From a virus (lineage: Duplodnaviria; Caudoviricetes), in the IMG/VR virus record IMGVR_UViG_3300027759_000109, positions 1-57,002 of that record: a DNA stretch of 57,002 bases; one strand, given 5' to 3'. Below, piece by piece: positions 1,963 through 50,754 of this stretch. Numbering within the stretch: the stretch's first letter is position 1; each line of letters opens with the position of its first letter. The position numbers were made by a program, and so were the translations under genes. Below the pieces are notes generated by a model. The model did not search any database. It worked only from the letters and a program-made list of their open reading frames with translations, and was not told the origin of the DNA.

Positions 1963-2493
1963 TCATCGTTTTGGTTTTTGTATAGTCCTAATTTCAATTT
2001 TTTTTGACCTTAGTACTTCTTCTACTGCCTTGTCATACATTCCCCATAATATCATCAAATAACTCTTTCGTTGGTATTTTAGATAATTGTTAATTCCTTC
2101 TTGGATTAACTTCTCATTCTTAAGTAGTTTACCAATTTTGGTATTGGTTCTGTTCTTATTTTTTTTATTATGAAGTGAGGTTACCCATTCAAGGTTTTCA
2201 AGTTTGTTATTGGTAATATCAAAATCCTTGTGATTAACTTCAGCAAGATTGTCAGGATTTGGAATAAAGTGTTGTGCCACCAATCTATGAACATAATACA
2301 ATACTGGTTTATATCCTTCAGGAATATTCTGTAATATCACCTGATGGTATCCAGTATTTTTGTTGGGATGATGTTTTCTAACTCTAGGTTCTTTTAGTTT
2401 TGTACGCCATCTTCTGTGTAATGTTGTCCATAAAGTACCGTTGGTATCAATTAAGTAATGTTCAAATCCTTCTATTTCTATTGGTTTTATCAT
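1963..2493 (-). CDS. HNH homing endonuclease (NUMOD4/HNH_3 type)
   Basis: YVHRLVAQHFIPNPDNLAEVNHKD..NN..NLEWVT..N motif. Confidence 0.85.
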   Translation of the reverse strand: MIKPIEIEGFEHYLIDTNGTLWTTLHRRWRTKLKEPRVRKHHPNKNTGYHQVILQNIPEGYKPVLYYVHRLVAQHFIPNPDNLAEVNHKDFDITNNKLENLEWVTSLHNKKNKNRTNTKIGKLLKNEKLIQEGINNYLKYQRKSYLMILWGMYDKAVEEVLRSKKIEIRTIQKPKR

Positions 2494-2863: not shown

Positions 2864-3598
2864 TTAATTGTTTAAAAGTTTATACGCCTTAATTGTTGCT
2901 ATTCTAAAATTATCAAATTGAAATTGTTTTTCCAAATTAACACAAAATCTATTTGCGTCATTCTTCTTCAAATCTTTTTCCCACTCCGGATATTTCTCAT
3001 TGAAGTATAAATTTAAATCTTTCTTCAACAAATCATTATCAATTGCTAATACTTGTTCTTTTGTTAATATCTTATCTTTAATTTCATATTTAAATATTTC
3101 TATTAACTTTTTATTTCTTTTATCTATTTCTGTTACTATTACTTTCTCTTTATCTTTCTCTTTCTCTTTCTCTTTCTCTTTGTTATGTTCTGTTATAACA
3201 CTGTTATATTCTGTTATAACACTGTTATCGTTTGTTATAACACTACTATTATTTTTATTCCAACGAACCGACATCCCTTTCTTTCCCGCTTCTGATTTTT
3301 TTAATTTAATTTCTTCCCTATATAATAGGTTTTGTTTTACTCTATTACAAGTAATTTTATCATCCTCAACGGAGAAACAAATTTCAACCACATCGTTTAT
3401 TACTTGTTCATCAACTTGTAATTGGAATGCTAGTAATTTAGGTTTGGTCTCAATATAACCATTACCCTCGTGTAACATCTCAACTAAACACCAATAGACA
3501 CCGATACCGGCCATTTGATGTTTCATTCTAACCTCAATTAGTTTTTCATCTTCACGACTATGATTGTCGTGCTGAAAATAATATTTTGGATTTACCAT
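2864..3598 (-). CDS. Putative replication initiator (DUF4373/Lin1244-like N-terminal domain)
   Basis: YFQHD..R.DEKL....G.GVYW.LVEML motif; SEAGKKGM..RW; internal iteron-like repeats and KEKEKE tract. Confidence 0.75.
   Translation of the reverse strand: MVNPKYYFQHDNHSREDEKLIEVRMKHQMAGIGVYWCLVEMLHEGNGYIETKPKLLAFQLQVDEQVINDVVEICFSVEDDKITCNRVKQNLLYREEIKLKKSEAGKKGMSVRWNKNNSSVITNDNSVITEYNSVITEHNKEKEKEKEKDKEKVIVTEIDKRNKKLIEIFKYEIKDKILTKEQVLAIDNDLLKKDLNLYFNEKYPEWEKDLKKNDANRFCVNLEKQFQFDNFRIATIKAYKLLNN
3181..3245. repeat. Iteron-like 21-bp repeats, each with palindrome TGTTATAACA (putative origin)
   Basis: Palindrome at 3191-3200, 3212-3221 and 3233-3242; adjacent pyrimidine-rich tract at 3141-3182. 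Confidence 0.65.
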
Positions 3599-3614
3599 AT
3601 TATTGTTTAATTTA

Positions 3615-3724
3615 ATAAAAAAGGGCCATCAAATACTTACTGCCTCTTACCTCAGTTTTCTTTGACAACCCTTAAAATCTTTAATGTCCTTATAGTGTAA
3701 GAGGGGACTACAATTATAAATATA
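3615..3724 (-). promoter_or_regulatory. Structured 5' leader (promoter, terminator hairpin, pseudoknot) of the initiator gene
   Basis: TATATTTATA at 3715-3724; 13-bp stem 3621-3633/3661-3673 with G-U pairs valid only on minus strand; loop GTAAGAGG complementary to upstream CCTCTTAC. Confidence 0.55.
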
Positions 3725-3783
3725 TGAAAAAAAATCAAAAGAAAAAAATTATAGTAATATTTTTTTATTTCAACTATTCTTCT

Positions 3784-3791
3784 TATATTTG
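3784..3791 (+). promoter_or_regulatory. Bacteroidota housekeeping -7 promoter element TAnnTTTG
   Basis: TATATTTG about 30 nt upstream of ATG 3821; conserved at 35479-35486. Confidence 0.6.
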
Positions 3792-3820
3792 AGTATTGTT
3801 AAACAACAAAACAAATAGAA

Positions 3821-4099
3821 ATGGCAAACAACAAAACTTACGAGAACCTTCAAATGGGATTTGACAGGACTCAACTTTACAAAGAGTACACACAACCTCA
3901 AATCAATCGTTCAACCGCCTTACAGGCTACCATGAACTTTATTAGGGTTAATCAGTACCAATTATCACTTACGGAGACTATTGCGTTATCAGAGAATTTT
4001 GTTAAGTATATTGAAGATGGTAAAACAGACTGGATGAAAAAGACAGAACAATACCTTCAAAATAAATTACAAGATATTGATGGTGTATTAATCGATTAA
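3821..4099 (+). CDS. Hypothetical early protein
   Basis: 92 aa with A-rich leader, promoter and terminator; positional counterpart at 35510..35743. Confidence 0.7.
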   Translation: MANNKTYENLQMGFDRTQLYKEYTQPQINRSTALQATMNFIRVNQYQLSLTETIALSENFVKYIEDGKTDWMKKTEQYLQNKLQDIDGVLID

Positions 4100-4123
4100 A
4101 TATAATACTTTTTTGTTTATACT

Positions 4124-4157
4124 AAGGGGTGAAGTTGGTGTACTTCCCCCTTTTTTT
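4124..4157 (+). terminator. Intrinsic terminator
   Basis: AAGGGGTGAAGT..ACTTCCCCCTT hairpin plus T-run; equivalent at ~35767-35804. Confidence 0.6.
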
Positions 4158-4164
4158 AATACTT

Positions 4165-4488
4165 ATGGTTATGAAAGATTTTAAATTCCTTTCATCTGTT
4201 GATGATGAAGATGCTGTTGAACCGAACCTTGATAGATTCCATGAACTGATTGGTTATCAAAGAAGAATTGAAATAGATATTCTACCAACAGAAACACCCC
4301 AAATTTACACTCAAATCATAAGGGTGGAACTTCCTATCAACCAAATGTCGGAAGACCATTTAAACCACCTTAAAATAAGTAATCAGAGTATCTTACTTAA
4401 TCAAATATCAGATACATTAGATTTCCGTCACGAGATTATTCATCAAGACGAAAACGGATTTACTCTTAGAACAGAATTATATTTTTAA
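4165..4488 (+). CDS. Hypothetical protein (107 aa)
   Basis: Start moved to ATG 4165 by comparison with the highly similar 107-aa ORF 35813..36136. Confidence 0.7.
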   Translation: MVMKDFKFLSSVDDEDAVEPNLDRFHELIGYQRRIEIDILPTETPQIYTQIIRVELPINQMSEDHLNHLKISNQSILLNQISDTLDFRHEIIHQDENGFTLRTELYF

Positions 4489-4527
4489 TATTTGTTTTTA
4501 TAAAAATATTTTGTTATATTTAATATT

Positions 4528-4640
4528 GGAAGGACGGATACAGTTTTCATTCTAAATTTGATATTGCCATTTCATGTAGTCCATCCGTTCTTCCTTTTTA
4601 TATATAGATAAACCCCTGATTTTTTAAGTCAGGGGTTTTT
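4528..4640 (+). ncRNA. Putative small RNA (hairpin with large loop plus terminator)
   Basis: Upstream TATATTTAATA (4515-4525); 12-bp stem 4528-4539/4583-4594 covarying with unit B; terminator 4610-4640. Confidence 0.6.
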
Positions 4641-4666
4641 AATTATATATGGTCAGAGGTGATTTT

Positions 4667-4987
4667 TTATTTTTCGTCCCAAGTACCTTTACACACTGCG
4701 TATGCTTGTCCTTCAACATCGTACTCTGTTCCAATTGCTCCAATACATCTTCCAATATATTCATCTTCAGTTTCCCCACCATCAGGTGTTGGAATAACAA
4801 ACTCTTGTTTTGATTGTTCTTCTTTAACTGGAACACAGTTAGGAACCATGATACCGTCTTTTTCTTTCATTCCAACAGGTTCATATCCTTCCCAACATGG
4901 GTTCTCCATTTCACCTTCCGCCATTTTCTTTGGGTATTTAATCTCAAAGTTGTTTAATTTAAGATTGATGATTTGTTCTAAATTCAT
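4667..4987 (-). CDS. Small phage protein with CWxGY..VPNCVP and PxxxE.E.EYI.RC modules
   Basis: 106 aa; motifs conserved in 36926..37246. Confidence 0.7.
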   Translation of the reverse strand: MNLEQIINLKLNNFEIKYPKKMAEGEMENPCWEGYEPVGMKEKDGIMVPNCVPVKEEQSKQEFVIPTPDGGETEDEYIGRCIGAIGTEYDVEGQAYAVCKGTWDEK

Positions 4988-7219: not shown

Positions 7220-7594
7220 TTAATTATCTATATATATAAAGTTCTCATTATCCTCATTAGGGGAAATGTATTGTGTAAATGGATTTGATTCTTGAGTTCC
7301 CTCCAATACTACCATTCCGTTGAAAACCTTGCTGTTATTATCACCATCCCCATATATATTCAACACATATTGACCCAAATAGTTTAGGTCATTAGTTATA
7401 AAATCTAAGTAAATTTCACAGTATCTAATGTTTGAAAAATATTGAGCAGGATTAGATAAATTAACCGTATAAACCTTAGATTCTTTACTCATTACATGTG
7501 TAAAATCTAAAGTATAAGTAGTAAATGTATCTCTACTATTATTGTTTATGTTTAGAACTAATGTGTTCTGTTGTGATTTTTGTAAGTATAACAT
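7220..7594 (-). CDS. Putative structural (head completion) protein
   Basis: 124 aa beta-rich ORF between tube and portal; homologue at 39691..40062. Confidence 0.5.
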   Translation of the reverse strand: MLYLQKSQQNTLVLNINNNSRDTFTTYTLDFTHVMSKESKVYTVNLSNPAQYFSNIRYCEIYLDFITNDLNYLGQYVLNIYGDGDNNSKVFNGMVVLEGTQESNPFTQYISPNEDNENFIYIDN

Positions 7595-7607
7595 AATAAT
7601 CTCTCAA

Positions 7608-11934: not shown

Positions 11935-11960
11935 AATATTAAATATATAAAATTATAGAG

Positions 11961-14921: not shown

Positions 14922-15929
14922 TTAACAAATTCCTGCTATTGATACATTTGGGAATCCTGTATAACTTAATGTTCCGTCTTTAACACATCCGGTAAGTGTT
15001 TGTGAGTATGCCATAATTGTTCCACCCACAGAACTATTTTCACAATCTAAACCACTCCAATAGACTTCGTATCCATTTGAAGTGTTATCAATAATCCATG
15101 ATGTTGATTCACAAGGTCCTGGTGTTGGAGTTGGAGTTGGTGTTGGAGTTGGTGGTAAACCACTACATGTTGTTCCACAATTGGTTATTGTAAACGATGC
15201 TACGTCCGCAAATGGGAAACCTGGTGTAATTGAACTACATATTGCACATTCTGTTATGGTATAAGTTCCTGTTGTGGATACAAATACATAATAATCATCA
15301 CCATTTGTTTGACTATCATATTTAATCCAACCAGTATCTGTTACGTTTAATGTTGCTCCACTTTGATATACCGTTGGTGTCGGAGTTGGTGTAGGTGGAC
15401 CTGGTGTCGGTGTTGGCGTAACTGGTGTTGGAGTCGGAGTTACTGGTGGTGTAATAGTACTTATTACAATATTTTGACATATGGGATAGACCGCTCTTTT
15501 TCCAATAAATCTAACTTCAAAATAATATGTTCCATTACTAAATTGGGATAAACCAAAGTCTGATGGTAATACAGTAATTCCCGCAATCGTTCCTGAAAAA
15601 GATGTTGAACCTGTTGATGAGCTACTTTGTGAATTTATCGTTCTCCATGGTTTAAAATATTCTTGACCTGCCGCCATCATATGAAGTGTGAATATAGATA
15701 CATTACCACTTTGTCTTAAGAATATTTCAGCATTATTTTTTGACCATGTATAACCTAAACTAAAGGTTAATGCTGAATAACTTATAGTTGTTGCGCTTAA
15801 ACTAACTACCGTTCCACTTACACTATTTTCATTAATATCATGAATAATCTCTGTATCATATTCAGTTAAATCGTAATTTGGATATACGAAATTTTGATTA
15901 TCAATTTGTTTTATATACTTTCTTCCCAT
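14922..15929 (-). CDS. Tail-associated protein with Pro-Thr linkers
   Basis: 335 aa, two PT tracts; homologue at 47147..48145. Confidence 0.6.
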   Translation of the reverse strand: MGRKYIKQIDNQNFVYPNYDLTEYDTEIIHDINENSVSGTVVSLSATTISYSALTFSLGYTWSKNNAEIFLRQSGNVSIFTLHMMAAGQEYFKPWRTINSQSSSSTGSTSFSGTIAGITVLPSDFGLSQFSNGTYYFEVRFIGKRAVYPICQNIVISTITPPVTPTPTPVTPTPTPGPPTPTPTPTVYQSGATLNVTDTGWIKYDSQTNGDDYYVFVSTTGTYTITECAICSSITPGFPFADVASFTITNCGTTCSGLPPTPTPTPTPTPGPCESTSWIIDNTSNGYEVYWSGLDCENSSVGGTIMAYSQTLTGCVKDGTLSYTGFPNVSIAGIC

Positions 15930-15977
15930 ATTATTAAATATATTTTTTCTCTATATCAGTTCCCAAATTATTCATTA

Positions 15978-17541: not shown

Positions 17542-20500
17542 TTATGTTGATGGGTTCATTGTTATATCACCAATATAAAATTCTGATAATCCTTTATATC
17601 TAAAATAATTTGAAACATTCCATGAAGTACCTCCATTTGTTGAATATAATACTGTATAAATAAAATTATTAGGGAAAGAAGGTGCTACCTTTCTTTTTAT
17701 TGCCACATTAATTTTACTACCAGAACCATTTGTTGCTACCACATCAAATCTATCGGTAAAACTATAATTTGTAGAACCGCTTAATATTAAATTAAATGAA
17801 TCAGCATAATCACTTGATTTATATAATTTACTTTCAGCCATCAAATACCAAAATTGACCAGTTTCATTGATTGCCATTTTGAAAAAGTATAAAGAATATA
17901 AATCTTTTATATTTTCTAAAGCCCATGTTGTTCCATAATTAGATGAAACATATAAATAAGAATAATTTAATAATAATCCAATATATTGACCATCACTTGA
18001 AATTGAAAATTCATTTATAATTGAAGTACCTGTCATAGATGGAAAGGTCGTTAAGGTTGTCCAAGTTGAACCTGAATTTGTTGATTTTATAACTTTTGAA
18101 CTTCCCGCTAAATATATTGTACTACCATCTAATGTTAAATTTCCTTTAACATAAGGGTCACTAATACTTGTACCCGTTAAATTATTATAATTAGAACCAT
18201 AATCAGATGAAAATATAAAATTAGTTGAATCATAAGTAATTAATCTATATTGTCCATTTCTTGACATTGATGTTGTGGCAAAATCGGCAGAACTCATACC
18301 ATAAGAACCAACCTGTGTAAATGTTGCTCCACTATCACTTGATTGATATATTCTATCATTAGTACTGGTTGCTGTATTATTAGTAGTTACGATTATGTAT
18401 TTACCTGATGAATCTAATGATAATATATATGGTTCCGTAGTTCCAGTAAATCCATATATATCACTAAAATCTAAACCATTATTAGTGGATTTCATTATAC
18501 TTTGACCTTCTTGTGGTGTATTTGATAATAAAATTATTTCACCTCCAACTAATGGTGTAGGAGTAGGAGTAGGAGTTGGTGTTGATGTTGGTGTTTGAGT
18601 CGGAGTAGGAGTTGGACTTGAAGTAGGCGTTGGAGTTGGAGTAGGTGTAGGAGTTGGAACCAAACATTGACCGTAGTTAATGGATGAGCCAGTCAACACA
18701 CCCCATGTTGATACTGTACTATAAAATTCTGAACAGTTATTAAATAAGTTTGTACCTTGTCTTGTTGAACCACTATTCATCCAAAAGGTTGGCATGTTAT
18801 ATTGGAAAGGTCCGTACTGTTCATTATATATATAATTGTGTAATGTATCATTACTCCAATCTGATCCTGTTGAGTTGTAAGTATCCTCATCAACCTCATA
18901 CATACTATAAGGACAATAGACTTCCTGAGAGAAGTTTATTACAAACTTGAATGAAGATGTAAAACCACTTGTTTGACCCGTTAAAGACCCCACAGAGTGA
19001 TCGTAATATACTGACCAACCATAATTAGTGTCCAGTATATTTGGGTTCGTAAAATCGGTCTTAAATTTGAATGTACAGTTATTTAAACCATCACAATAAT
19101 CATACATGAAGTATCTTGTTGGATATTGATTAACATCCCCATTAAATTGAATTAATTCAACCTTGGTTAATTCTCTATTAGTTAAATTAAATTCAGATAT
19201 TTTGGATACAACAAAATATTGTTCATTAATCTTAATTGCGTCTTCAGGTTTTAGATATTTTACATCAGCATAACTTAAATCAAAGTTACCTGTCAATACC
19301 CTTGTATTAGGGTTATATAAATTAGTAATTCTATTTTGATAGAATGTTGAATATGCGTCGTTTTCTGTATATGTGTTGAATGTTTCTACACCAATTGTAT
19401 CCGTTGGAAACTCTGAATTAAATAAAAGACATAAACTATCGTTATTAATCTTGTTTTGGTCCGCAAGTCCCATAGGCATTGTATGACTAATCACAGGAAT
19501 ACGGTCAAATTGTGTATATGTTGAACCTGATGTATTAGAAACATATGTATTATATGTCTTATAAAAGTTAGTTGCGTCATAGTTTTCACCCACAATGTCT
19601 AAGAATGGATTGAAACAACCCAACCAAAACATCAATTTAGGTTTAGTTTTAACACCTTTATATACCCAACTTACCTTTGAAGTTGTCTGATCTGTCTGTT
19701 CACTACTTGAACCAACGTAATTTATACCTAATGGTAGACTAATATTACCATTATTTGTGGTACCAGAGGTATCCCATTTACGAATTATCTCAGGTCCAAA
19801 TATTGTTTCAATCTTTTTTACATTAGATTTAAATGATGTTGGACCATAAAAATTATTAATACCATATATACGATTGGTATTACCTTTAAATTCTTTATTA
19901 CCTTCATCATTATCTTCAGCGTCTGTAAATGTTATTTGACTTTCAATAAAGTTTAACGCTGGCTCAACGGTAAATCCTTTGTCAAAACTAATCTTATCAG
20001 ACCAGTTATGAACTGTACCACTACCTATGAAAAAATCATATGGTTCAATACGAATCACAGATGGTTCATAAGGGTCAGGAACAAGGACTAAATTGAACTT
20101 CTTGGCCACAGATGATAGTATGTCTATCTGTTTAATATTTTCGTCTATAACAAAATTAAAATCAACAAAATCACCATCCACAAAATTAACACTACTACCA
20201 ACAGCCACAGGAAGATACAATAATGGACCACTTGAAGTTGCTGTACTTAAAGATTCACCAGTAAGAAATGTTGAACCCAAATCAAATGTTAAACCTGATG
20301 TACCATATGGAATTGTTGAATCAAATGTATAGTTTAGATAATTCATTCTGATATTAATATCATTTGAACAAAAACAAGGGATACCTGTCCCAAGTTTACA
20401 AACAATTGCATATTGTTTTTCATTTAAATCTAAAAAGAAAACATCCACACCTTCTAAAGGTAATGTTTGAATTGAATTTACTTTAAATGAGAACTTAGTT

Positions 20501-28272: not shown

Positions 28273-30913
<2,641 letters not shown>

Positions 30914-30952
30914 TCAAAAACGAAACATTACTTCCGTTTAATTTAAATTTTT

Positions 30953-31345
30953 TTATTCTGTAATATTAATATTAATAGAAATAGTTTCACCATTTGAAGT
31001 TAGGTCAACTTTCTTTGGTGCTTCCATTCCTAATATCTTTGTTATGTCTCTTAGAACTTCTGATTCAATCCTTCTATTACCTTGTAGTCTACAACGATTT
31101 AAAAGGTCATACAGACGATTTAATTGTTCGGTTAGTATTTCCTCTTGGTTCTGAGTATATCGTTCCTTCAGACGGTTCCTAACATCCTTCCAAACGTTTT
31201 CCGCTTGTCTTGTTGTTATATCATATTCTTGTGCGAACTGTTTCTTAAATTCATCATATGATTTTTTCTCATATAACATTAACTCAAAGGCACGTTCCAT
31301 CCTTTGTTCATATTCTATTTCGTTTGCTTTGTTTTCTTTGCTCAT
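30953..31345 (-). CDS. Putative terminase small subunit
   Basis: Helical 130 aa upstream of TerL; C-terminal KKVDLTSNGETI motif. Confidence 0.6.
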   Translation of the reverse strand: MSKENKANEIEYEQRMERAFELMLYEKKSYDEFKKQFAQEYDITTRQAENVWKDVRNRLKERYTQNQEEILTEQLNRLYDLLNRCRLQGNRRIESEVLRDITKILGMEAPKKVDLTSNGETISININITE

Positions 31346-31701
31346 AATATTCCTATGTTATTTAAGTGATTGGTAAACTTTCTTGCTTGACCTTTACCAC
31401 ATCCTCCACAGTTAAATATAAATTCTTCACCAAAGAGTGCCTGATATACTTTTTGAATAAATTCTTTCTTGTCTTCTTTCACCCCACCGAATGATGTAAG
31501 TTCAGCGTATGCAAGTTTAATATCCTCTACGGTTGGAATATATATTTCAGGTTCCAAGTCAAATGGTAATGGTACATTTTCTACCACAACTTCTTTTGGT
31601 TTCTTACAAGTTGTACACTTTGTTCTCTTTTGTTTGCCAGGATTTTCAATAGAGTTTTGTTTTAACTTTTCTAATCTATCCTTACTTCCGAGTTTGTCCA
31701 T
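31342..31701 (-). CDS. Hypothetical Cys-motif protein
   Basis: 119 aa with CTTC and CGGC; translationally coupled. Confidence 0.6.
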   Translation of the reverse strand: MDKLGSKDRLEKLKQNSIENPGKQKRTKCTTCKKPKEVVVENVPLPFDLEPEIYIPTVEDIKLAYAELTSFGGVKEDKKEFIQKVYQALFGEEFIFNCGGCGKGQARKFTNHLNNIGIL

Positions 31702-31704
31702 ATT

Positions 31705-31845
31705 TTAGTTCTGAGTTTGTCCACTTATTGGTGTTATTTCATCTATGTTATTATACCAATCTTCTTGTGGTTGAGGTATTGGTTCAGGCGTTGGTTCAGG
31801 TTTTGGTACTTCTTGAAGTGCTCTACCTTTTTTACAGTTACACAT
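31705..31845 (-). CDS. Small Pro-rich protein (46 aa) missing from the ORF track
   Basis: MCNCKKGRALQEVPKPEPTPEPIPQPQEDWYNNIDEITPISGQTQN; overlaps upstream stop and ends 3 nt before next ATG. Confidence 0.6.
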   Translation of the reverse strand: MCNCKKGRALQEVPKPEPTPEPIPQPQEDWYNNIDEITPISGQTQN

Positions 31846-32068
31846 CTTGTTCTATATTTTCTCCTTCTACGATAACAGTATTTTCCCTATTGATTCTTTC
31901 TTGTTCTCTTTGTTTTAACATTACATCATATAGTTCAAGTAACTGTTGTCTTTCTTCAGGAGTATGTTTGTTTATCTGTTCCATTGTTTCTCTTTGAATC
32001 TTTAGGAACATCTTCTTTGATTCTCTATCTTGGAATCTTTTGTTTCTTCTTGTTGGTGATGCACTCAT
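31838..32068 (-). CDS. Hypothetical protein
   Basis: 76 aa charged helical ORF, coupled to neighbours. Confidence 0.6.
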   Translation of the reverse strand: MSASPTRRNKRFQDRESKKMFLKIQRETMEQINKHTPEERQQLLELYDVMLKQREQERINRENTVIVEGENIEQDV

Positions 32069-32592
32069 TCTTTTATCTTTTTACCGTGAATGACCCCCTG
32101 ATAATCTATATCAATATGGTCAAACTTATAATAGTTTATTTCATAACCGTTGTTTTCTAATATATGTTCTATTGATAATAGACAACTCAAGTTGTGGTAC
32201 TCACACGCTATCTCATCTATACCATCAAAATGTTTATATTCAATTGCGTTCATCATTATTTCAGATCCTTCCACATCAATCTTCATTACCTGTGGTTTGT
32301 AATAGTCCATATACATAATAAACTTCTCGTGCCTATCTACCATATCCATATGTGGAATGAAGTGTTGAACATTATAGTTTTGTTTAAACCATTCGTATGA
32401 TTGTGGGTTTCCATCCACACCAATTACCTTTGATGCTTTACGTTCCTGTAAAAAATATACTGGTGTTGGTGTAAACTCTGAGTTGATTCCACATCCTAAA
32501 TCTAATACAACCTTATCTCTGATGTTTAAAAATCCCCAATGAATGTCTGGTGATTCTGATGTGATGATTCCTTTTGGTTCCCTAATCTTCAT
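32065..32592 (-). CDS. SAM-dependent (FkbM-like) methyltransferase
   Basis: VLDLGCG and MKIDVEGSE motifs. Confidence 0.75.
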   Translation of the reverse strand: MKIREPKGIITSESPDIHWGFLNIRDKVVLDLGCGINSEFTPTPVYFLQERKASKVIGVDGNPQSYEWFKQNYNVQHFIPHMDMVDRHEKFIMYMDYYKPQVMKIDVEGSEIMMNAIEYKHFDGIDEIACEYHNLSCLLSIEHILENNGYEINYYKFDHIDIDYQGVIHGKKIKE

Positions 32593-33103
32593 TTTCTAAT
32601 CTTTTTAATATTTTTGTTTTAACTTCTTTTCTTGCTTCTTTGATATATCTTGAAATAGAAGGTAGTGGTATGGTTGTCTTCTTTGATACTTTCTTTAATG
32701 ACCCAAGCGTTAAATACATTTCAAACAAACTCTTATGAAACCAATTCAACTCACTAAACTCTGCTTCTAATATATCATAAATATTTTGTACTTCAAATGA
32801 TTCTTGGTCTGATTCCATCTCAGCAATACCATTTAAGTCTACATACAATGTATGTTCCCTCCTTACCCTATAATAAAATGGTGATGTTTTTGAATAGAAA
32901 TTTGTCCTGAGTATTGCGGTAATATAATACCTGATTGAATTGTCATCGTATGACTTTAAAATGATTTCGTCTTTGTCATACAATTGTAGAATTACTTCGT
33001 GTAATAAATCTTTGGATAGGTCGTGATGTTTGGTTATTCTCTCTGAAATGTTTGAGAGTAAGTAATAGTTCTTCGTTATGTAAGCCTCTATTATTTTATT
33101 CAT
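32582..33103 (-). CDS. ECF/sigma-70-like sigma factor (unit B)
   Basis: Diverged homologue of 340..867. Confidence 0.65.
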   Translation of the reverse strand: MNKIIEAYITKNYYLLSNISERITKHHDLSKDLLHEVILQLYDKDEIILKSYDDNSIRYYITAILRTNFYSKTSPFYYRVRREHTLYVDLNGIAEMESDQESFEVQNIYDILEAEFSELNWFHKSLFEMYLTLGSLKKVSKKTTIPLPSISRYIKEARKEVKTKILKRLENED

Positions 33104-33365
33104 TTTTAGTTAATAATGTTTTCACATCTGAAAGAACTTGTACGACCTCGTAATTCTCATCTCCCAAATTAGTTATAATAGAACTTTCAATAATTCCATC
33201 CAATATTTCTAACCTATCTATTTCAGGTTCAACACTTCTATCAATAATATGTAACATTGAATCTATTATAGTATTACATAATGATACCCTTTGTCTATGA
33301 GTAAACTTAAAATAGTCTTTTGGTATATTTAATTCACCTATGTCAACCGTTTCCTTATGCTCCAT
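33096..33365 (-). CDS. Hypothetical protein
   Basis: Homologue of 857..1120. Confidence 0.6.
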   Translation of the reverse strand: MEHKETVDIGELNIPKDYFKFTHRQRVSLCNTIIDSMLHIIDRSVEPEIDRLEILDGIIESSIITNLGDENYEVVQVLSDVKTLLTKNE

Positions 33366-34101
33366 TCTTATTTATAAGTTTTTGTATGCTGGCTGTTGAT
33401 ACACCATACTTTATAGCAATTCTTTTATAAGACCAATCCTTACTTGAATTATATAATTCTATTATCTCTTTTCTATGTTCAGGATTCCAATTTATTTCTG
33501 ATGTATAGATTAATTTCTTTTTAACCTTTGGAAATACCAATTTACCATTAATATATTCTTTAACACCAGGTTTTAAGAAATGACCACACTCATCACTATA
33601 AGTATAACCGAGTGCCTTCATTACCATATAGGTTTGTTCCTTTTGATATTCATCAGCCCATACCCCAACTTTATTATATACTCTTTCTGAACCACCACTT
33701 GTTTCTAATTCCCCGTATCTACTCTCCCTTCTTCTATCTAATTCCCTTTTGTTACAACATTTTCTACAATCAAGATATGTGGTTTTTTTACTTTTACCGT
33801 GATAATAATAATCATCCATCCTATGTTTATACTGCTGACAGGTTCTACATAACTTGTAGTCAGGATTTGTTGAGAATAGATTCTGTTCCACAGGTTGAGG
33901 TTGCAATACCTCTATTTCTAATTCTAAGACCACTGGTTCAATTATCTCTTTCATTGTGATACTTTCCTTGTATTTTGTTTTTTGATTCTTAAAACAAGAC
34001 TTACAGATTCTTCTTGTACGCCATTTCTTTTGAGTGGAATGGTAATAACTATAATACTCATTTTCCTGTTTATCAATTGAACATTTACTACACTTAATCA
34101 T
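33355..34101 (-). CDS. Double zinc-finger plus HTH protein
   Basis: Near-identical to 1101..1862. Confidence 0.7.
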   Translation of the reverse strand: MIKCSKCSIDKQENEYYSYYHSTQKKWRTRRICKSCFKNQKTKYKESITMKEIIEPVVLELEIEVLQPQPVEQNLFSTNPDYKLCRTCQQYKHRMDDYYYHGKSKKTTYLDCRKCCNKRELDRRRESRYGELETSGGSERVYNKVGVWADEYQKEQTYMVMKALGYTYSDECGHFLKPGVKEYINGKLVFPKVKKKLIYTSEINWNPEHRKEIIELYNSSKDWSYKRIAIKYGVSTASIQKLINKNGA

Positions 34102-34210
34102 AAATACTTGCGTTTAAACGAAAAACCCCCACCTAACAAAATATTAGGTAGGGGAAGAAAATTCCTAATGTTTGGGAACATATTAGAATAATAAATATTA
34201 CACAAACATC

Positions 34211-34636
34211 TTAAAAAAGTAAATGGTCAATCTGTACTGCCTTTGATGTAGGTAAATCACCTACTAGTTTCTTTATTACATCAGTACTACCATTATTGTA
34301 GTAAGTAGATTTCAACATTGATTGTTCTCTCCACACTGGTTCTTCTATCTCTTTCAAATCAAAGATGTAGATACCGTTAGGTGTTGAGTTAACATACCAA
34401 CAGTTTTCTTTTTCCATTAATACTTTGTACTTGTCTTGTTGAATGAACAGAAAACCATTATGGTGGTCATCCCTACACTTTGCCTCCATCCAAATATCGG
34501 ATTCAGGATAATGCCAGTCAATAATTGAGTGCGGATCTTTTTCGTTGAGGTCTATGAGTCCAGTATATCTGGTGCTCATTAACTTGAACAATTCCTGTTC
34601 ATTCATATTGGATAGATATTTTTCTCTGTTGAACAT
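34211..34636 (-). CDS. PD-(D/E)XK-like nuclease
   Basis: ID....MEAKCR and YVNSTPNGIYIFDL motifs; occupies the slot of the HNH gene in unit A. Confidence 0.55.
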   Translation of the reverse strand: MFNREKYLSNMNEQELFKLMSTRYTGLIDLNEKDPHSIIDWHYPESDIWMEAKCRDDHHNGFLFIQQDKYKVLMEKENCWYVNSTPNGIYIFDLKEIEEPVWREQSMLKSTYYNNGSTDVIKKLVGDLPTSKAVQIDHLLF

Positions 34637-34637
34637 A

Positions 34638-35123
34638 TTACATTAGTTTTTTATACGCGTGAATGTGTGCGATAGTTAATTCATTTACTTCCATATAGTT
34701 CTTTGTATTTTGAATAAACTTTTCCGCAGTGTTAGTTGAGATTAAATCCAATTTCCATTTACGATTATCATTTTCAAAAAACAGGTTCAAATATTCTTCC
34801 AAATATTCTTTACCAAAATTCATTAATACATTTACCTGTGGAACTTTGATGTCGTCCAGTATACTAGAACTTGTATCTGTTGAGGTATTATCAAATAGTT
34901 TTTTATCAACTAGCGAGTTACCATCCCTAAATTCCCTATCTCTTTTATACATATCAATTATTACTCGTTCGTATGTACTGCGAGAATCTTCAGGTATTTC
35001 TAATACTTCCAATATGTATTTTTCCTTTCGTTCTTGTGATAGATAAGAAAATTTGATAGGGCGTATTTCACCTGCTCTGTATTTCCATACGCCATCTGTT
35101 GTTAATTCTGGTCTGTTTGCCAT
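34638..35123 (-). CDS. Hypothetical fusion protein (120-aa-protein domain plus initiator C-terminal domain)
   Basis: N half resembles 2490..2852; C half resembles the end of 2864..3598. Confidence 0.6.
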   Translation of the reverse strand: MANRPELTTDGVWKYRAGEIRPIKFSYLSQERKEKYILEVLEIPEDSRSTYERVIIDMYKRDREFRDGNSLVDKKLFDNTSTDTSSSILDDIKVPQVNVLMNFGKEYLEEYLNLFFENDNRKWKLDLISTNTAEKFIQNTKNYMEVNELTIAHIHAYKKLM

Positions 35124-35151
35124 TTCTATTTTGTTTAAGTTAAAGATATAT

Positions 35152-35250
35152 GCGAGTATATTCGCCTATTTTATATATACAAATTTAAATAATTAAATTG
35201 ATAAAAAAAAATCTCAAAGAAGATATGCGAACATTCTCGCTCATACTCGC
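35152..35250. promoter_or_regulatory. GCGA-N6-TCGC operator-like palindromes flanking a TAnnTTTG element
   Basis: GCGAGTATATTCGC 35152-35165; GCGAACATTCTCGC 35227-35240; TAAATTTG on minus strand at 35180-35187. Confidence 0.45.
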
Positions 35251-35509
35251 TCCTTTCTTTTATTTGTTTTTTATACTGGTGCTCTATGCTGGGTAAAATG
35301 CTGGATAAAAAATTTCAATAAAAATTTTACACGGTCCAACAGGGGTGATTACCTGAAGTCTAGTAGTTTATTTGAAATGGTTCCTACTCCACCATTAGAA
35401 TGTGTATAACAATAAATACATAATTTTTTCCGAAAAGACAAATTTTCCAATAAATTTTTTTTTATCAATTATTCTTCGTATATTTGATTAAACAATAAAA
35501 CAAACAGAA

Positions 35510-35743
35510 ATGGCAGAACTACAATTTTACAGCACAGATATCAAAATCTTGCAACAATCTCAAAGTAAATTAGTACTTGAGTATTTGAATCTTATGGGTA
35601 TTAAACCTACCGTAGAAGAACTTTGGAGAGTAACTGAAGTATTTGTTCAATGTTGTCTTCATAACCAAGACGATGACCTTAAAAAGAGAATTAAAGCGTT
35701 GGATGAGTGGGTTGTAAAAAAACAATCTAAAAATAAAGTATAA
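35510..35743 (+). CDS. Hypothetical early protein
   Basis: 77 aa; TATATTTG at 35479-35486; positional counterpart of 3821..4099. Confidence 0.7.
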   Translation: MAELQFYSTDIKILQQSQSKLVLEYLNLMGIKPTVEELWRVTEVFVQCCLHNQDDDLKKRIKALDEWVVKKQSKNKV

Positions 35744-35812
35744 TACATTTTTGTTTATATAGTGTTAAGGGGGATTTGGTTGGTGTACCATTTCTCCCTT
35801 TTTTAAATATTT

Positions 35813-36136
35813 ATGGTTATGAGAAATTTTAAATTCCTTTCATCTGTTGATGATGAAGATGCAATTGAACCGAATCTTGATAGATTCCATCAACTGATAG
35901 GTTATCAAAGAAGAACTGAAGTGGACATTATTCCAACAGAACCACCCCAAATTTACACTCAAATCATAAGAGTGGAACTTCCTATCAATGAGATGACAGA
36001 AGACCATTTAAATCAACTTAAAATGAGTAATCAGAGTATCTTACTTAATGAAATATCAAACACATTAGATTTTCGTCACGAGATAATTTCAGTTGATGGG
36101 AATGGATTTACACTTAGAACAGAATTATTTCTTTAA
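35813..36136 (+). CDS. Hypothetical protein
   Basis: Highly similar to 4165..4488. Confidence 0.7.
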   Translation: MVMRNFKFLSSVDDEDAIEPNLDRFHQLIGYQRRTEVDIIPTEPPQIYTQIIRVELPINEMTEDHLNQLKMSNQSILLNEISNTLDFRHEIISVDGNGFTLRTELFL

Positions 36137-36175
36137 CATTTGTTTTTTTAAAAATATTTTCATATATTTATAATT

Positions 36176-36296
36176 GTAAGGGCGGATACATTTTTATTCT
36201 AAATCTGATATTGCCATTTCATATAGTACATCCGTCCTTACTTTACTTATATAGATAGTGATTTTACTTAAAACCCTGACTTTGTCGGGGTTTTTT
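36176..36296 (+). ncRNA. Putative small RNA (unit B copy)
   Basis: TATATTTATA 36163-36172; stem 36176-36187/36230-36241; terminator 36270-36296. Confidence 0.6.
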
Positions 36297-36384
36297 GTTT
36301 GTGGATATGTCAATAACTTTTTTATAAAGTATTTTGATATTGTATAAATTAATATTACCTTTATTAAAATAAAAATCAATAGAT

Positions 36385-36861
36385 ATGAAATGGAATAAAG
36401 ATAAGGTTACAGAAATTGCTAAACAATATTCTAATCAAAAAGAATTTAGAAAGGCTAACATTGGGGCGTTTGAATATTCTAAACGTACTGGTTTATTAGA
36501 TGTTTTATTCCCCGATAGAAAGAAGAATGAAACTAATTGGACAGTTGATAAGGTTAAGGATATTGCGTCCAAATATCGTAGACGTAAAGACTTTTGTCAG
36601 ATTGAAAAGTCGGCTGCTGGTATGGCATACCGATTTGGTATTATGAATGAACTTTACCCACACAAAGAGTTTAAGACTCATACTCCAACCGAAGAGGAAA
36701 TGAAAGGACGCACAAAGAGATGTTGTCACTGTAAAGAAGAATTACCTTTAAAGTATTTCCACAAGAATAGAGTATTTTTTGATGGTCTTGCACACAACTG
36801 TAAGAACTGTACCAATAGTTTTAACAGAGAAAGAATGAGATTAGTTAAAAATAAAAAATAA
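36385..36861 (+). CDS. Protein with homing-endonuclease-associated DNA-binding repeats and zinc finger
   Basis: Two W..DKV..IA..Y....F repeats plus CCHC..CKNC; absent from unit A; own hairpin terminator at ~36867-36895. Confidence 0.6.
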   Translation: MKWNKDKVTEIAKQYSNQKEFRKANIGAFEYSKRTGLLDVLFPDRKKNETNWTVDKVKDIASKYRRRKDFCQIEKSAAGMAYRFGIMNELYPHKEFKTHTPTEEEMKGRTKRCCHCKEELPLKYFHKNRVFFDGLAHNCKNCTNSFNRERMRLVKNKK

Positions 36862-36925
36862 ACAAATAAGGGACCTGTAATGGGTCCCTTTATTTTGTAT
36901 ATATAATTTTGTGAGAGGTGTTCAA

Positions 36926-37246
36926 TTACTCGTCCCACTTTGCTTTACAAACAGCATACGCTTGTCCTTCAGCATCGTATTCGGAACCAATCTCACTGAT
37001 ACATCTACTGATGTATTTTTGTTCATCTTCATCACTTGCTGGTGATGGAATAGGGAAACCTTCTTTTTTAATTTTAGATTGTTCTTCTTTGATTGGAACA
37101 CAATTAGGAACGGTCTTACCATCCAGTTCTTTAGTTCCTATAGCGATGTATCCTGGCCAACAAGCGTCTTCTAAATCCGCCATTTTCTTTGGATACTTAA
37201 TCTCAAAGTTATTTAATTTAAGATTGATGATTTGTTCTAATTTCAT
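36926..37246 (-). CDS. Small protein with CWxGY..VPNCVP module
   Basis: Homologue of 4667..4987. Confidence 0.7.
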   Translation of the reverse strand: MKLEQIINLKLNNFEIKYPKKMADLEDACWPGYIAIGTKELDGKTVPNCVPIKEEQSKIKKEGFPIPSPASDEDEQKYISRCISEIGSEYDAEGQAYAVCKAKWDE

Positions 37247-44769: not shown

Positions 44770-44793
44770 ATTATTAAATATAAATTTTTTAGA

Positions 44794-47146: not shown

Positions 47147-48145
47147 TTATGGACAACTGTAATCACCTGTAGCCGTAACAGTATATGTTATTGGTTGGTA
47201 TGATGGTGTAAATCCTGATATTACGTAGAAATAACCAAAACTTCCTTGTACTCTATCACCACTATTAAATGTTCCATATCCTAATAATTGTGAATATTTT
47301 GTTTCATATGTTTGACAATCAACCATTATATAATATCCATCATTACTGGTCGGTGTAGGTGTTGGTGTTGGTGTAACACCAGGACTACAACTTGAACCAC
47401 ATTGAATTACTGTAAAGTTTGCTAAGTCAGCAAATGGATAACCATAATTAATTGTATCACAAATTAAACAGGCTGTTAACGTTACCGTTCCAAGACTTCC
47501 AATATATTCATATGTTGTACCTGATACAGTATCGTATTTAATATAACCTGTATCTGTTACGTTTATGGTTGCTCCACTTGTAAAAGGAGATGGGGTTGGT
47601 GTTGGTGTTATTGGTAACGGTGTAGGTGTTGGTGTAACAGGTGTAGGAGTCGGAGTAGGTGTAGGAGTTGGTATTGTTCCTACCGCATATGTTTGACATA
47701 TAGGATAGATTGCTCTATGACCTATAAATCTAAATTCAAAATAGTATGTACCATTGGTAAATGATGTTAGACCCATTTGTGATGGTGTAACAGTAATTGT
47801 ATTTGAACCACTTAATGTTGTTGAGCCTGTTGATGCTGATGATAAGAAATCTACTAACCTCCAAGGCTTAAAATAATCCTGACCTTCTGCCATCATATGA
47901 ACAGATAATACAGATAAGTTACCACTACTTTGTATATATGGTTCTGCGTTATTCTTTACCCAAGTATAATCGTGTGTAAAGGTCAAACCTGTACTTGTGA
48001 TACTTGTACCTGTAAAGTTGGTTACCGTTCCACTTATACTATTCTCATTGACATCGTGAATTATTTCTGTATCATATTCCGCCAAATAGTTATTTGGGTA
48101 TATGAAATTTTGATTATCAACCTGTCCTATAAATTTTCTACTCAT
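47147..48145 (-). CDS. Tail-associated protein with Pro-Thr linkers
   Basis: Homologue of 14922..15929 with a different last domain. Confidence 0.6.
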   Translation of the reverse strand: MSRKFIGQVDNQNFIYPNNYLAEYDTEIIHDVNENSISGTVTNFTGTSITSTGLTFTHDYTWVKNNAEPYIQSSGNLSVLSVHMMAEGQDYFKPWRLVDFLSSASTGSTTLSGSNTITVTPSQMGLTSFTNGTYYFEFRFIGHRAIYPICQTYAVGTIPTPTPTPTPTPVTPTPTPLPITPTPTPSPFTSGATINVTDTGYIKYDTVSGTTYEYIGSLGTVTLTACLICDTINYGYPFADLANFTVIQCGSSCSPGVTPTPTPTPTSNDGYYIMVDCQTYETKYSQLLGYGTFNSGDRVQGSFGYFYVISGFTPSYQPITYTVTATGDYSCP

Positions 48146-48146
48146 A

Positions 48147-48401
48147 TTAATTAATTGTGTTTCCTGTTAAACTTGAATATTCGTTATCCCAACCCTCAAC
48201 TATATTATTAATTTCTCTATTATTAAATATAATATTGTTGGTCATCGTACTGTGAAAGTCAGGTGTGTCACCTGTCCAACTAATAATAAATAATGATTTG
48301 TCAAAGTTGTATCTTATGGTTTCTTCTGAATCCTGAAGGATTTGAGTAAAATCTATTTTATCCAAATCTATTATTGGTTGTATTGTATATTTTCTTTCCA
48401 T
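48147..48401 (-). CDS. Small protein, possibly a fibre-associated chaperone
   Basis: 84 aa following the LamG-containing gene; absent in unit A. Confidence 0.5.
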   Translation of the reverse strand: MERKYTIQPIIDLDKIDFTQILQDSEETIRYNFDKSLFIISWTGDTPDFHSTMTNNIIFNNREINNIVEGWDNEYSSLTGNTIN

Positions 48402-50743
48402 TATGAATATCTTGTTACGTAATATGAGTATAAATCACTCACTTCTGTTGAGGTTAATGTTTTACTATATGCCTGTATATTATAAATGTTACCATCTAAA
48501 TAATTACCGCCGTCCGATTGTGCTAATGTCATATTTGTATCAGTAGGTACTCCTATATTAACATTAGATAAAACACTAACTAATGTTTGATTTAATGAAC
48601 CATTCAAATATATTTTTGTCGTTTTAGTTGATGCTTCCCAAGTTATTGCTAAATTATAAATTGTACTAGCACTTATTGTGGCTCCCGTATATGACGGTAA
48701 AATATCAACAGCAGAGATATTTCTCATACCACCATCTATTTTACCACTATTAATTTGCCACACAAATATAAAATTGAAAAGTGGACTACTTCCGTTTGAG
48801 GACCAATTACCAAATATTCTTTGGTTATCAGTTATTTTATTAGTTTTAAACCACATATTCCAAGTAAAATTAGAACCAATGGTTAAACCTGTTCTTAAAA
48901 TATTAGCATAATCATTTACACCATCAAATACAATACTTCCACCATTTAAACTACTATATGTTGGACCATTTACTAATGTTGTTGTATGACCACTTCCCGA
49001 TAAATCATACCAAGTTGTTCCTGTGCCAGGATATGACAATGGGTCACCAGCATCTAAATTAAGTACTAAATTAGATGGTATAACAGGAGTTGGTGTCGGA
49101 GTTGGAGTTGATGTAGGTGTAGCGGTTGGTGTAGGCGTAGGTGTTCCTGTAGGAGTTGGGGTAGGAGTAGGTGTACCTGTTGGTGTAGGGGTAGGTGTGC
49201 TAGTAGGTGGTGGTGTAGGTACAGGTAATGAATAACCATTATTTTTATTTTGTTTAACAAATTCAAAACCATTTGGCCAAGATCCTATAATATAATCAAC
49301 TATAATATCACTAAATGTTGCACCATAGTCTGATGATTTTTTCAATTGATATTGTTCTGATTGATTTTGTATTGTCACAAAAACATATTGTCCTGTTGCG
49401 GATGCTGAAATATCTACAACTCTATTATTACCAATTGTACTACCTGTTGACCAAGTAGCACCATAATCTGTTGAACGTTTAAACCATCCTGTTGGTGTCG
49501 GACTATTTGTTGTATTAGCACCAACAAACATATATTGTCCTGTTTCTGACATAGCAACTTGACCATTGTTTAATAAATCTAAATAAACAAAACTAAATGT
49601 AGAACCTGAATTTGTTGATAATAATACACTACCATCCTTAGGGTCAAGTGTAGATAATGTATTATAACTTGCTAAGATATATTGATTGTTTTTAGATACG
49701 GCAACACGACTATAAGACGTTGCTCCTGTTAAACCAGTATCAGCATCAATATAAATTGGTGCTCTTGAATTATTACCTAAATTTGTTAAACTTGATAATG
49801 AATCAACTTTATATATATAATCATTTAAGGTACTTGTTATACCATACATTGGATATGTTACATTAGGAACAACCACTTGTTGCCAATTTTTTGTTGATCC
49901 TGAAACAGGATTAAAATTAAAACCATAATTTGATGAAACAAATAAACTACCACTACTTATTTTACCAATTGCTTGATATTCACCTGTATAGTTTATATCC
50001 ATTTTTGACCATTCATAATCAGTAGTTCCTCCTGCGAATGAACCAGTAGTAAATGTTATACCTGAATTTACTGAAATATAATATTTATCAGCGGCAAATG
50101 AAACAACATTACCTAATGCTGATACACCAGCGGTAGTTGGATATTGTATTGGTTGATAAATTGATGAATATGTATTATTACCTCCACCTGTGGATGAGTA
50201 CATAATTCTTTCATCATAACTAAATGATGGTGGAAATACTGTCGGTATATCAACTAAAACAAACTTACCTTCTGGTAATGGTGTTGGAGTTGGTGTAGGA
50301 GTTGGTGTTGGTCCAGGATTAAATGTTGATGCTGTAACTCTATACTCAAAGTTATACGCATCTGATACAGTAGTTGCGGTAAATATTATTGATACTGGAT
50401 TTGATGTTCCACCACTACTTGTTATGAAAGTATCTCTTATACCGTTATCACCATTTTGATCATCAGTTGTATAATCCCTTCTTGTTAATGAAATTTGTTT
50501 ACCTAAATTTGATGGTGATGTAAATACTTGCATTGAAACAACATCACCTAAATTTATGTTAGTTGTATATAATCCTTCTGTATCTGTGTATCTAATATTT
50601 CTAAATAAACCATTAACTCTACAATTAATAAAATCCACACCCCTATCATTAACCAATTCATCAAAGTTCAATATTAATGAACCATTAGTTGGAGTCGGAG
50701 TAGGTGTTGCACCTGTTATAATTATGATATTTTGATTTGGCAT
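48401..50743 (-). CDS. Receptor-binding protein: BNR propeller plus LamG/ConA-like domain
   Basis: N-terminus homologous to 15978..17522; SxDYGATW repeats; LDAG..SYPGTGTTWYDLSG..FDGVNDY LamG motif. Confidence 0.75.
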   Translation of the reverse strand: MPNQNIIIITGATPTPTPTNGSLILNFDELVNDRGVDFINCRVNGLFRNIRYTDTEGLYTTNINLGDVVSMQVFTSPSNLGKQISLTRRDYTTDDQNGDNGIRDTFITSSGGTSNPVSIIFTATTVSDAYNFEYRVTASTFNPGPTPTPTPTPTPLPEGKFVLVDIPTVFPPSFSYDERIMYSSTGGGNNTYSSIYQPIQYPTTAGVSALGNVVSFAADKYYISVNSGITFTTGSFAGGTTDYEWSKMDINYTGEYQAIGKISSGSLFVSSNYGFNFNPVSGSTKNWQQVVVPNVTYPMYGITSTLNDYIYKVDSLSSLTNLGNNSRAPIYIDADTGLTGATSYSRVAVSKNNQYILASYNTLSTLDPKDGSVLLSTNSGSTFSFVYLDLLNNGQVAMSETGQYMFVGANTTNSPTPTGWFKRSTDYGATWSTGSTIGNNRVVDISASATGQYVFVTIQNQSEQYQLKKSSDYGATFSDIIVDYIIGSWPNGFEFVKQNKNNGYSLPVPTPPPTSTPTPTPTGTPTPTPTPTGTPTPTPTATPTSTPTPTPTPVIPSNLVLNLDAGDPLSYPGTGTTWYDLSGSGHTTTLVNGPTYSSLNGGSIVFDGVNDYANILRTGLTIGSNFTWNMWFKTNKITDNQRIFGNWSSNGSSPLFNFIFVWQINSGKIDGGMRNISAVDILPSYTGATISASTIYNLAITWEASTKTTKIYLNGSLNQTLVSVLSNVNIGVPTDTNMTLAQSDGGNYLDGNIYNIQAYSKTLTSTEVSDLYSYYVTRYS

Positions 50744-50754
50744 AGTTTATTTTA

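Follow-up and report, generated by a model that had tools for sequence, protein, structure and literature searches.

A small hairpin RNA of Flavobacteriia-type phages with a loop complementary to phage start codons

The question raised by this locus is whether a hairpin that occurs twice in a phage sequence is a small RNA in its own right and whether, as the initial annotation had proposed, its loop acts as an antisense to the start codons of early phage genes. The window, by which we mean the whole 57,002-base stretch of DNA that was analysed and which is the whole of its source record, has a G+C content of 32% and is contained in DNA datasets from freshwater and sediment metagenomes; a look for RNA datasets covering 3600-4700 found none. 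It is made up of two collinear, diverged tandem copies of one ~32.3-kb unit of a Flavobacteriia-type phage, the two units sharing 65-96% nucleotide identity depending on the segment:

1-32242: unit A
32243 to the end of the window: unit B

The window amounts to about 1.77 tandem units. Given that IMG/VR relatives with direct terminal repeats are ~33 kb long, we take the real genome to be one unit and the record to join two variants. The joint between the units may come from the assembly of two co-occurring strains, or may be a true heterodimer; contigs of four DNA runs over 30500-37000 are short pieces only and are uninformative on the tandem arrangement. The proteins encoded by a unit include a portal, a large terminase, an XkdF-type protease, a collagen-like tail fibre, a DNA methylase and HNH endonucleases, and among cultured relatives Flavobacterium phage 11b is the nearest by terminase (46.8% identity).

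Each unit has one long minus-strand gene block plus a short plus-strand module, in which a small variable gene, a conserved gene for a 107-aa protein and the hairpin follow one another in that order, with an HNH-like gene in addition in unit B. The neighbours of the hairpin in unit A that matter here are:

2864-3598: a replication-initiator-like gene, ~1 kb from the hairpin
4165..4488, plus strand: the conserved 107-aa ORF, between the proposed target gene and the hairpin

Neither the 107-aa ORF nor ORF 3821-4099 (92 aa), the proposed target in this unit, belongs to a family in Pfam or PHROGs, a protein atlas look-up gave no usable function for either, and a cultured-phage nucleotide search with 3600-4700 returned no match. 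Several other features of this setting deserve recording. HNH-type endonuclease genes at 1963-2493 (minus strand) and 36385-36861 (plus strand) occupy sites that differ between the units and among relatives, a placement that would be as expected for mobile insertions. A conserved GC-rich hairpin with a T-run, at ~4125-4158 and ~35768-35806 (plus strand), separates the variable early gene from the 107-aa ORF and ends ~10 nt before the ATG of the latter; it is terminator- or attenuator-like within the early module. Degenerate 12-nt-periodic repeats (GTTGGTGTAGGAGT-like on the plus strand) run through 15103-15452, 18523-18669 and 47573-51183, inside several large minus-strand structural genes, where they would encode Thr/Pro-rich linkers.

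The two copies of the hairpin are laid out as follows:

4528..4640, plus strand: small RNA copy A, with 5' arm 4528-4539, loop 4540-4582 (43 nt) and 3' arm 4583-4594
4610-4638, plus strand: intrinsic terminator of copy A (from a terminator scan), reached from the 3' arm through an AU-rich linker with TATATAGATA
36176..36296, plus strand: small RNA copy B, with 5' arm 36176-36187, loop 36188-36229 (42 nt), 3' arm 36230-36241 and terminator ~36270-36296

Each unit holds one RNA gene of ~115 nt, consisting of a promoter-like motif, a GC-rich 12-bp stem, an AU-rich loop of 42-43 nt in which UUGCCAUUUC is the one G/C island, an AU linker and a terminator. The opposite strand beneath the RNA carries no gene. 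Folds of the plus strand give z-scores against shuffles of -6.4 (copy A) and -5.0. The linker box TATATAGATA, at 4601-4610 and 36248-36257 (plus strand), is invariant in nine of ten close variants, the remaining one (L007) having AAATAGATA; the same box is found at 7225-7234 on the minus strand, just upstream of the portal gene.

Ten distinct close variants of the locus were collected by protein-anchored and pattern searches of IMG/VR plus a metagenome match, the metagenome scan with an alignment of the 107-aa protein having yielded at least one locus. Across nine variants all 108 cells of the 12-bp stem are paired, three base pairs having changed on both sides, and the intrinsic terminator downstream also covaries. 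Ten cells of the stem are G-U pairs, which would become A-C mismatches on the opposite strand. The covariance model R1 detects exactly two copies in the record, with bit scores of 108.7 for copy A and 146.8 for copy B. Rfam gave no match at gathering score across the record, the best sub-threshold score being 24.8 bits against a cut-off of 43.

The RNA is not confined to these close variants. Searching with a nearby DUF6712 protein gave 236-243 related contigs, from which 98 loci were retrieved. With a covariance model trained on the close variants, weak matches of 33-46 bits appear at the same position and on the same strand in related phages, and these weak matches share one build: a TATATTTA-type motif, a GC-rich stem, an AU-rich loop of ~40-55 nt and a terminator. 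Stems vary widely among the subfamilies, and in every subfamily the promoter-like motif adjoins the stem. Scanning 80 loci for motif plus hairpin gave 31 on the RNA strand and 0 on the other; ten further members, of which L099 is probably false, came from scanning the remaining loci under relaxed criteria. The model has no match in Flavobacterium phage 11b, and a scan of bacterial genomes (one per species) with the loop pattern, its core left free, returned a single match, which was false, and no prophage copy. In freshwater viral contigs the RNA family is abundant. In many of its members (for instance L053, L063, L092 and L095) the stem has (A)GGAGG as its 5' arm and CCUCC(U)UU as its 3' arm, resembling a Shine-Dalgarno/anti-Shine-Dalgarno pair in a phylum without Shine-Dalgarno initiation.

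There are two ways in which such a hairpin might be conserved without being an independent RNA. The first is that it acts as DNA, for instance as a replication origin or a packaging or recombination site at which the stem-loop forms in the DNA itself. Origin hairpins, too, typically combine an invariant loop with a covarying stem, and the replication-initiator-like gene lies only ~1 kb away. However, a DNA element would have to tolerate the A-C mismatches that the stem's G-U pairs imply on the other strand, it would not be expected to stand between a promoter-like motif and a covarying intrinsic terminator, and the strand bias of the hairpin scan argues against it. We regard this explanation as extremely improbable. 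The second is that the hairpin is a cis-acting part of the early operon mRNA, a 3' protection or processing signal on the transcript of the 107-aa gene. Only 39 nt separate the stop codon of the 107-aa ORF from copy A, and both are on one strand. Yet the motif adjoining the stem in every subfamily is of the structural-gene type, many relatives are without the 107-aa gene and have the RNA after a different gene, and a protective hairpin needs no invariant AU-rich 43-nt loop with a conserved GCCAU. This, too, we consider very unlikely.

Judged from sequence, then, we accept the small RNA as real: its structure is conserved and specific to one strand, and it comes with a promoter-like motif and a terminator of its own. 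Some further readings of the loop were set aside. A peptide of seven codons on the minus strand of the loop exists in the close subfamily, is lacking in other subfamilies, and would lie on the strand opposite to that indicated by the G-U pairs of the stem. A mimic of a tRNA anticodon loop is ill served by the bases flanking CAU, which are unfit by general tRNA rules, and a CRISPR-repeat mimic was dismissed for want of an apparent resemblance.

The sequences upstream of the RNA and of its proposed targets bear on when each would be transcribed. The relevant motifs are:

4514..4527, plus strand: promoter-like motif TTATATTTAATATT, directly before copy A and containing TATATTTA
36163..36175, plus strand: promoter-like motif TATATTTATAATT, before the RNA of unit B
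3784..3791, plus strand: host-type -7 box TATATTTG (TAnnTTTG), upstream of ORF 3821

The motif TTATATTTAATATT occurs in exact form only at 4514 (plus strand), 7606 and 27390 (both minus strand), and with one mismatch at 11935, 44770 and 48219 (minus strand). The copies at 7606, 11935, 27390 and 44770 stand directly upstream of minus-strand genes of the structural module, in three cases a mere 2 nt from the ATG, in agreement with the initial annotation, which had assigned the RNA a late-type motif; the near copy at 48219 is inside ORF 48147-48401. At copy A the motif adjoins the first base of the stem. The TATATTTA within it differs by one base from the -7 box of Bacteroidota, for which the consensus TAnnTTTG is described (PMC7366714), and a transcription start a few bases past TATATTTA would fall on the first G of the stem. 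The RNA is probably transcribed from the type of phage promoter that precedes the structural genes, and we infer that it is expressed and that it appears late.

The proposed targets are preceded by a different motif. TAnnTTTG lies at 3784 (plus strand), 35479 (plus strand) and 35187 (minus strand), upstream of ORFs 3821, 35510 and 35123, and is not found just upstream of either RNA copy. The host-type element that had been described before all three genes is thus where it was said to be, but this is weak evidence, because the motif occurs 108 times in the record. Two observations on related motifs may be added. The motif TATATTTAATA, at 11935-11948, 15930-15943 and 44770-44783 (minus strand), stops 2 nt short of the ATG in three genes of the structural module; were it a -7-type promoter box, those three late mRNAs would be leaderless or nearly so. 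There is also a 41-nt inverted match (83%) between 3709-3749, upstream of ORF 3821 in unit A, and 36138-36178, just before the RNA of unit B, both segments being AT-rich and promoter-like.

The proposed pairing involves the following sites:

4564..4573, plus strand: loop 10-mer TTGCCATTTC, the proposed seed of copy A, with the family core GCCAT at 4566-4570
36211..36220, plus strand: loop 10-mer TTGCCATTTC of copy B
3818..3827, plus strand: GAAATGGCAA, the exact reverse complement of TTGCCATTTC, over the ATG of ORF 3821-4099, the proposed target in unit A
35117..35126, minus strand: GAAATGGCAA, exact, over the start of the divergent ORF 34638-35123 (161 aa)
35507..35516, plus strand: GAAATGGCAG, over the start of ORF 35510-35743 (77 aa), with nine Watson-Crick pairs and one G-U
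36383..36393, plus strand: ATATGAAATGG, over the start of the HNH-like ORF 36385-36861, with 11 nt complementary to loop B only

Every match that the initial annotation had listed is reproduced here: the 10-mer is in both loops with its exact complement over the starts of ORFs 3821 and 35123, the start of ORF 35510 pairs by nine base pairs and a G-U, and loop B extends over the start of ORF 36385, a start at which the match in relatives is 7-9 nt. By duplex energy these four genes are the top four of the 58 starts for both loops, and the best duplex of loop B, with the start of ORF 34638-35123, reaches -18.2 kcal/mol.

How much of this would be expected by chance? The caution that a 10-nt match is merely suggestive in AT-rich DNA was well placed. 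A single such match over a start codon is not beyond chance, since 435 of 3000 dinucleotide-shuffled versions of loop A have a match of at least 10 nt over one of the 58 start codons, and loop A itself has 46 complementary matches of at least 9 nt across the record. The number of starts covered by at least 9 nt is more unusual, namely six for loop A (reached by 6 of 3000 shuffles) and five for loop B (48 of 3000), but the covered starts are not independent, because three of the targets have a homologous leader. The best duplex energy is matched by 81 of 250 shuffles for loop A and by 10 of 250 for loop B. The unit A target ties at 10 nt with ORFs 2490-2852 and 857-1120, while in the related genome G003 the target is the top-scoring start, at 10 nt against 7 for the next best. 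The consensus fold presents UAUUGCCAUU as the apical loop, yet the predicted probability that the seed is unpaired in the full RNA is just 0.01-0.28; despite this low predicted accessibility, net interaction energies come to about -9 to -15 kcal/mol.

A more informative comparison comes from the close variants. The 13-mer ATTGCCATTTCAT is invariant in all ten, down to 57-82% identity in the adjacent 107-aa protein, and in this subfamily conservation goes beyond the 10-mer to nearly the entire loop of 42-43 nt. On the target side, 10/10 variants have (G/A)AAATGGCA(A/G) at the beginning of the gene in the same position, which lies 631-957 nt before the loop core and is strongly divergent in its coding sequence. 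The loop is complementary to that start over 10 bases in three variants, 9 in six and 8 in one, and the start of the 107-aa gene is never loop-complementary in these variants (only 4-6 nt). In four of five related genomes AAATGGCA occurs once in sense, at the target start, and once as the loop antisense; the fifth has two extra copies.

Beyond the close subfamily the picture changes, and the claim that the 10-mer is invariant holds for both copies and the close variants but not family-wide, where only GCCAU is kept. GCCAT is present in 24 of 27 distinct loops, compared with 249 of 20000 shuffled loops, and the hallmark of the family is therefore GCCAU rather than the 10-mer. The three exceptions have GCCCAT, GCCAAT or no such motif; among the members added by the relaxed scan, L129 has GCCAAT and L130 TCCAT. 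GCCAU is complementary to an AUG followed by the opening two bases of an alanine codon, and for many subfamilies the closest same-strand gene upstream starts ATGGC, with the bases flanking GCCAU fitting the start context of that gene. The lengths of contiguous complement between loop and the loop's own upstream ATGGC gene are:

L139: 13 nt
L053: 12 nt
L073: 11 nt
L047 and L051: 10 nt
L134: 9 nt
L072 and L075: 8 nt
L043 and L140: 7 nt
L033, L045 and L071: 6 nt

Outside the variants of the type found in the window, a start complement of 9-13 nt is accordingly seen in six subfamilies (L047, L051, L053, L073, L134 and L139).

The initial annotation had asked whether loop and target starts vary together in homologues, and the answer is positive in part. 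Over 14 subfamilies the complementarity extends beyond the ATGGC core by a mean of 3.79 for cognate pairs versus 2.49 for non-cognate pairs, an excess reached by 975 of 100000 permutations (1253 with G-U allowed); an 11-subfamily version of the test gave 760 of 50000. A further test took the target bases that depart from the majority. At positions -1 to -3, +6 and +7 the cognate loop is complementary to such bases in 5 of 14 cases (reached by 1559 of 100000 permutations), and at -4 to -1 and +6 to +9 in 15 of 31, against 7.3 expected (55 of 100000). The matched changes include U at -1 facing A in the loop (L043, L053), G at -1 facing C (L045), C at -2 facing G (L051) and G at -3 facing C (the source record). 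When all upstream ORFs are admitted to the cognate test, contiguous Watson-Crick length remains significant (62/20000), but the G-U-tolerant (3212/20000) and duplex-energy (3274/20000) metrics are not significant. It is important to note that all of these co-variation tests were devised post hoc, with the data already seen, and that the tests on the ATGGC gene leave out L049, L056/57/62/63/64, L082, L092/93/96, L095, L128/129 and L130, which have no upstream gene with that start, as well as L094 (whose loop has GCCAAT, not GCCAT) and L097 (which has no upstream sequence).

About one third of the subfamilies have no such phage start-codon target, and in four of eight complete genomes (G006, G008, G009 and G010) no start codon has a match of at least 9 nt through GCCAU. 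The claim that the RNA silences early genes therefore stands in part: a start complement of 8-10 nt in all ten close variants and the partial co-variation speak for it, but silencing of early genes cannot wholly explain why GCCAU is conserved, because several subfamilies as well as those four genomes have no good target. Among individual loops, that of L095 has an 11-nt complement at an internal AUG (codon 22), and that of L071 matches a divergent gene's start over 12 nt. The L071 loop is also complementary over 15 nt to the early-gene start of L045, compared with 6 nt at its own target, a cross-match that could reflect module shuffling or targeting across phages.

Such observations lead to the possibility that the RNA is real and has its main job elsewhere, with GCCAU pairing to host mRNAs that start AUGGC or to early genes of competitor phages, or binding a protein, and with the fit to the phage's own target as a by-product of a common start context. 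This would account for the retention of GCCAT in 24 of 27 loops, for the subfamilies and complete genomes that have no good start target, for the conservation of almost the whole 42-43-nt loop in the close subfamily, and for loops that fit the early start of another phage better than their own. It does not readily explain why the bases flanking GCCAU vary by subfamily in step with the cognate upstream start; because they do, neither a single host target nor a fixed protein site is what one would predict. We hold this explanation, the main rival, to be a real possibility, although on balance a doubtful one. A-rich leaders and AUG-GCA starts are a common context, and loop and target could each be conserved for reasons of its own. 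A broader version, in which a generic anti-'AUG-GCN' loop has its flanks retuned in each lineage and serves as a programmable switch on the phage's own early gene, on Met-Ala host mRNAs and on co-infecting relatives, strikes us as unlikely. Were it true, the RNA would be a tool of host takeover and of competition between phages in a phylum without Shine-Dalgarno initiation.

The reading that we tentatively prefer, at a little short of an even chance, is that the RNA silences an early gene of its own module by loop pairing across the start codon. The RNA would be made from a structural-gene-type promoter and would accumulate late in infection. Its loop would then pair with (G/A)AAAUGGCA(A/G) spanning the start codon of the small early gene that comes first in its own plus-strand module (ORF 3821 for unit A, ORF 35510 for unit B), and early genes that start alike, ORF 35123 and perhaps ORF 36385, would also be paired. 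In a host phylum without Shine-Dalgarno pairing, ribosomes would be kept from loading on an AUG that is masked together with its A-rich surroundings, and the accumulated RNA would in this way shut the targeted early genes off. If early transcription reads through to the RNA, the pairing could also take place in cis, with the 3' end of a transcript pairing to its own 5' end. Start-codon occlusion is feasible in this phylum, given that Bacteroidota mRNAs are described as being without Shine-Dalgarno sequences and as relying on A-rich leaders, and given the precedent of the Bacteroides small RNA GibS, which is described as repressing mRNAs without Shine-Dalgarno sequences by pairing across their start codons (PMC7366714). 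On these grounds antisense control of early Met-Ala starts appears plausible and partly supported, not proven. The locus is, on the evidence of its sequence, well supported as an RNA family and only partly as to its target.

What recommends the locus is the combination of a hallmark GCCAU in an AU-rich loop with a concrete, testable target. If confirmed, it would be a case of early genes being shut off on schedule by a phage RNA that pairs at start codons, in hosts that do not use Shine-Dalgarno sequences, and the design of knock-down RNAs aimed at start codons in Flavobacteria could take it as a natural template.

Among known phage systems, the c4 antisense RNA of phages P1 and P7 serves lysogenic immunity; it is released by processing of the operon transcript, in which it precedes its target, and pairs through two loops. 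Both c4 and the present RNA are phage RNAs from the strand and gene block of their target, with a loop that pairs (here, is proposed to pair) with a translation start; loop and target of c4 differ in step between related phages, as may in part hold here. Unlike c4, the RNA described here is ~600-950 nt downstream of its target and has its own promoter-like motif and a single complementary site. No integrase or repressor family was found by Pfam and PHROGs among the 41 ORFs scanned, which make up one full unit and the second early module, and for these reasons (position, single site and no lysogeny genes in those 41 ORFs) we set aside an immunity RNA of the P1/P7 c4 type. The sar RNA of P22 and the OOP RNA of lambda are likewise small phage antisense RNAs that lower the expression of a regulatory phage gene, and resemble the present proposal in being directed against a phage gene; they are cis-antisense RNAs, encoded on the opposite strand and overlapping their target, an arrangement rejected here since in both units one strand carries RNA and target alike, with ~700 nt between them. 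In T4, translation of several early mRNAs is stopped by RegA, a later phage protein that attaches to their start regions. The logic is that of our proposal, with a protein as the effector in place of the proposed RNA.

Outside this group, GibS and other trans-acting small RNAs of Bacteroides are described with features also met here, TAnnTTTG promoters and the lack of Shine-Dalgarno sequences, and GibS with a conserved single-stranded seed that pairs across the target start codon and represses, as proposed for the phage RNA (PMC7366714). By that description GibS is chromosomal and has an extended, unstructured 5' seed, whereas the present RNA is phage-encoded, has its seed in a large hairpin loop and is known from sequence alone; the two have no sequence or Rfam relation. 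Base-pairing small RNAs of phage origin are described in PreS/LPR1 of lambda, which acts in trans on host mRNAs (10.1101/2024.10.31.621285), and in StxS, which comes from an Stx-phage late promoter (PMC7547250); as described, both act on host mRNAs in Hfq-containing enterobacteria, and neither has a sequence relation to the RNA found here. Since a full-text literature search returned no small RNA described for a Flavobacterium phage or any other Bacteroidota phage, small RNAs of Bacteroidota phages appear to be essentially undescribed. By analogy, the present RNA, which belongs to no Rfam family, would resemble the start-codon-occluding small RNAs in its mechanism, and c4 and RegA in its logic.
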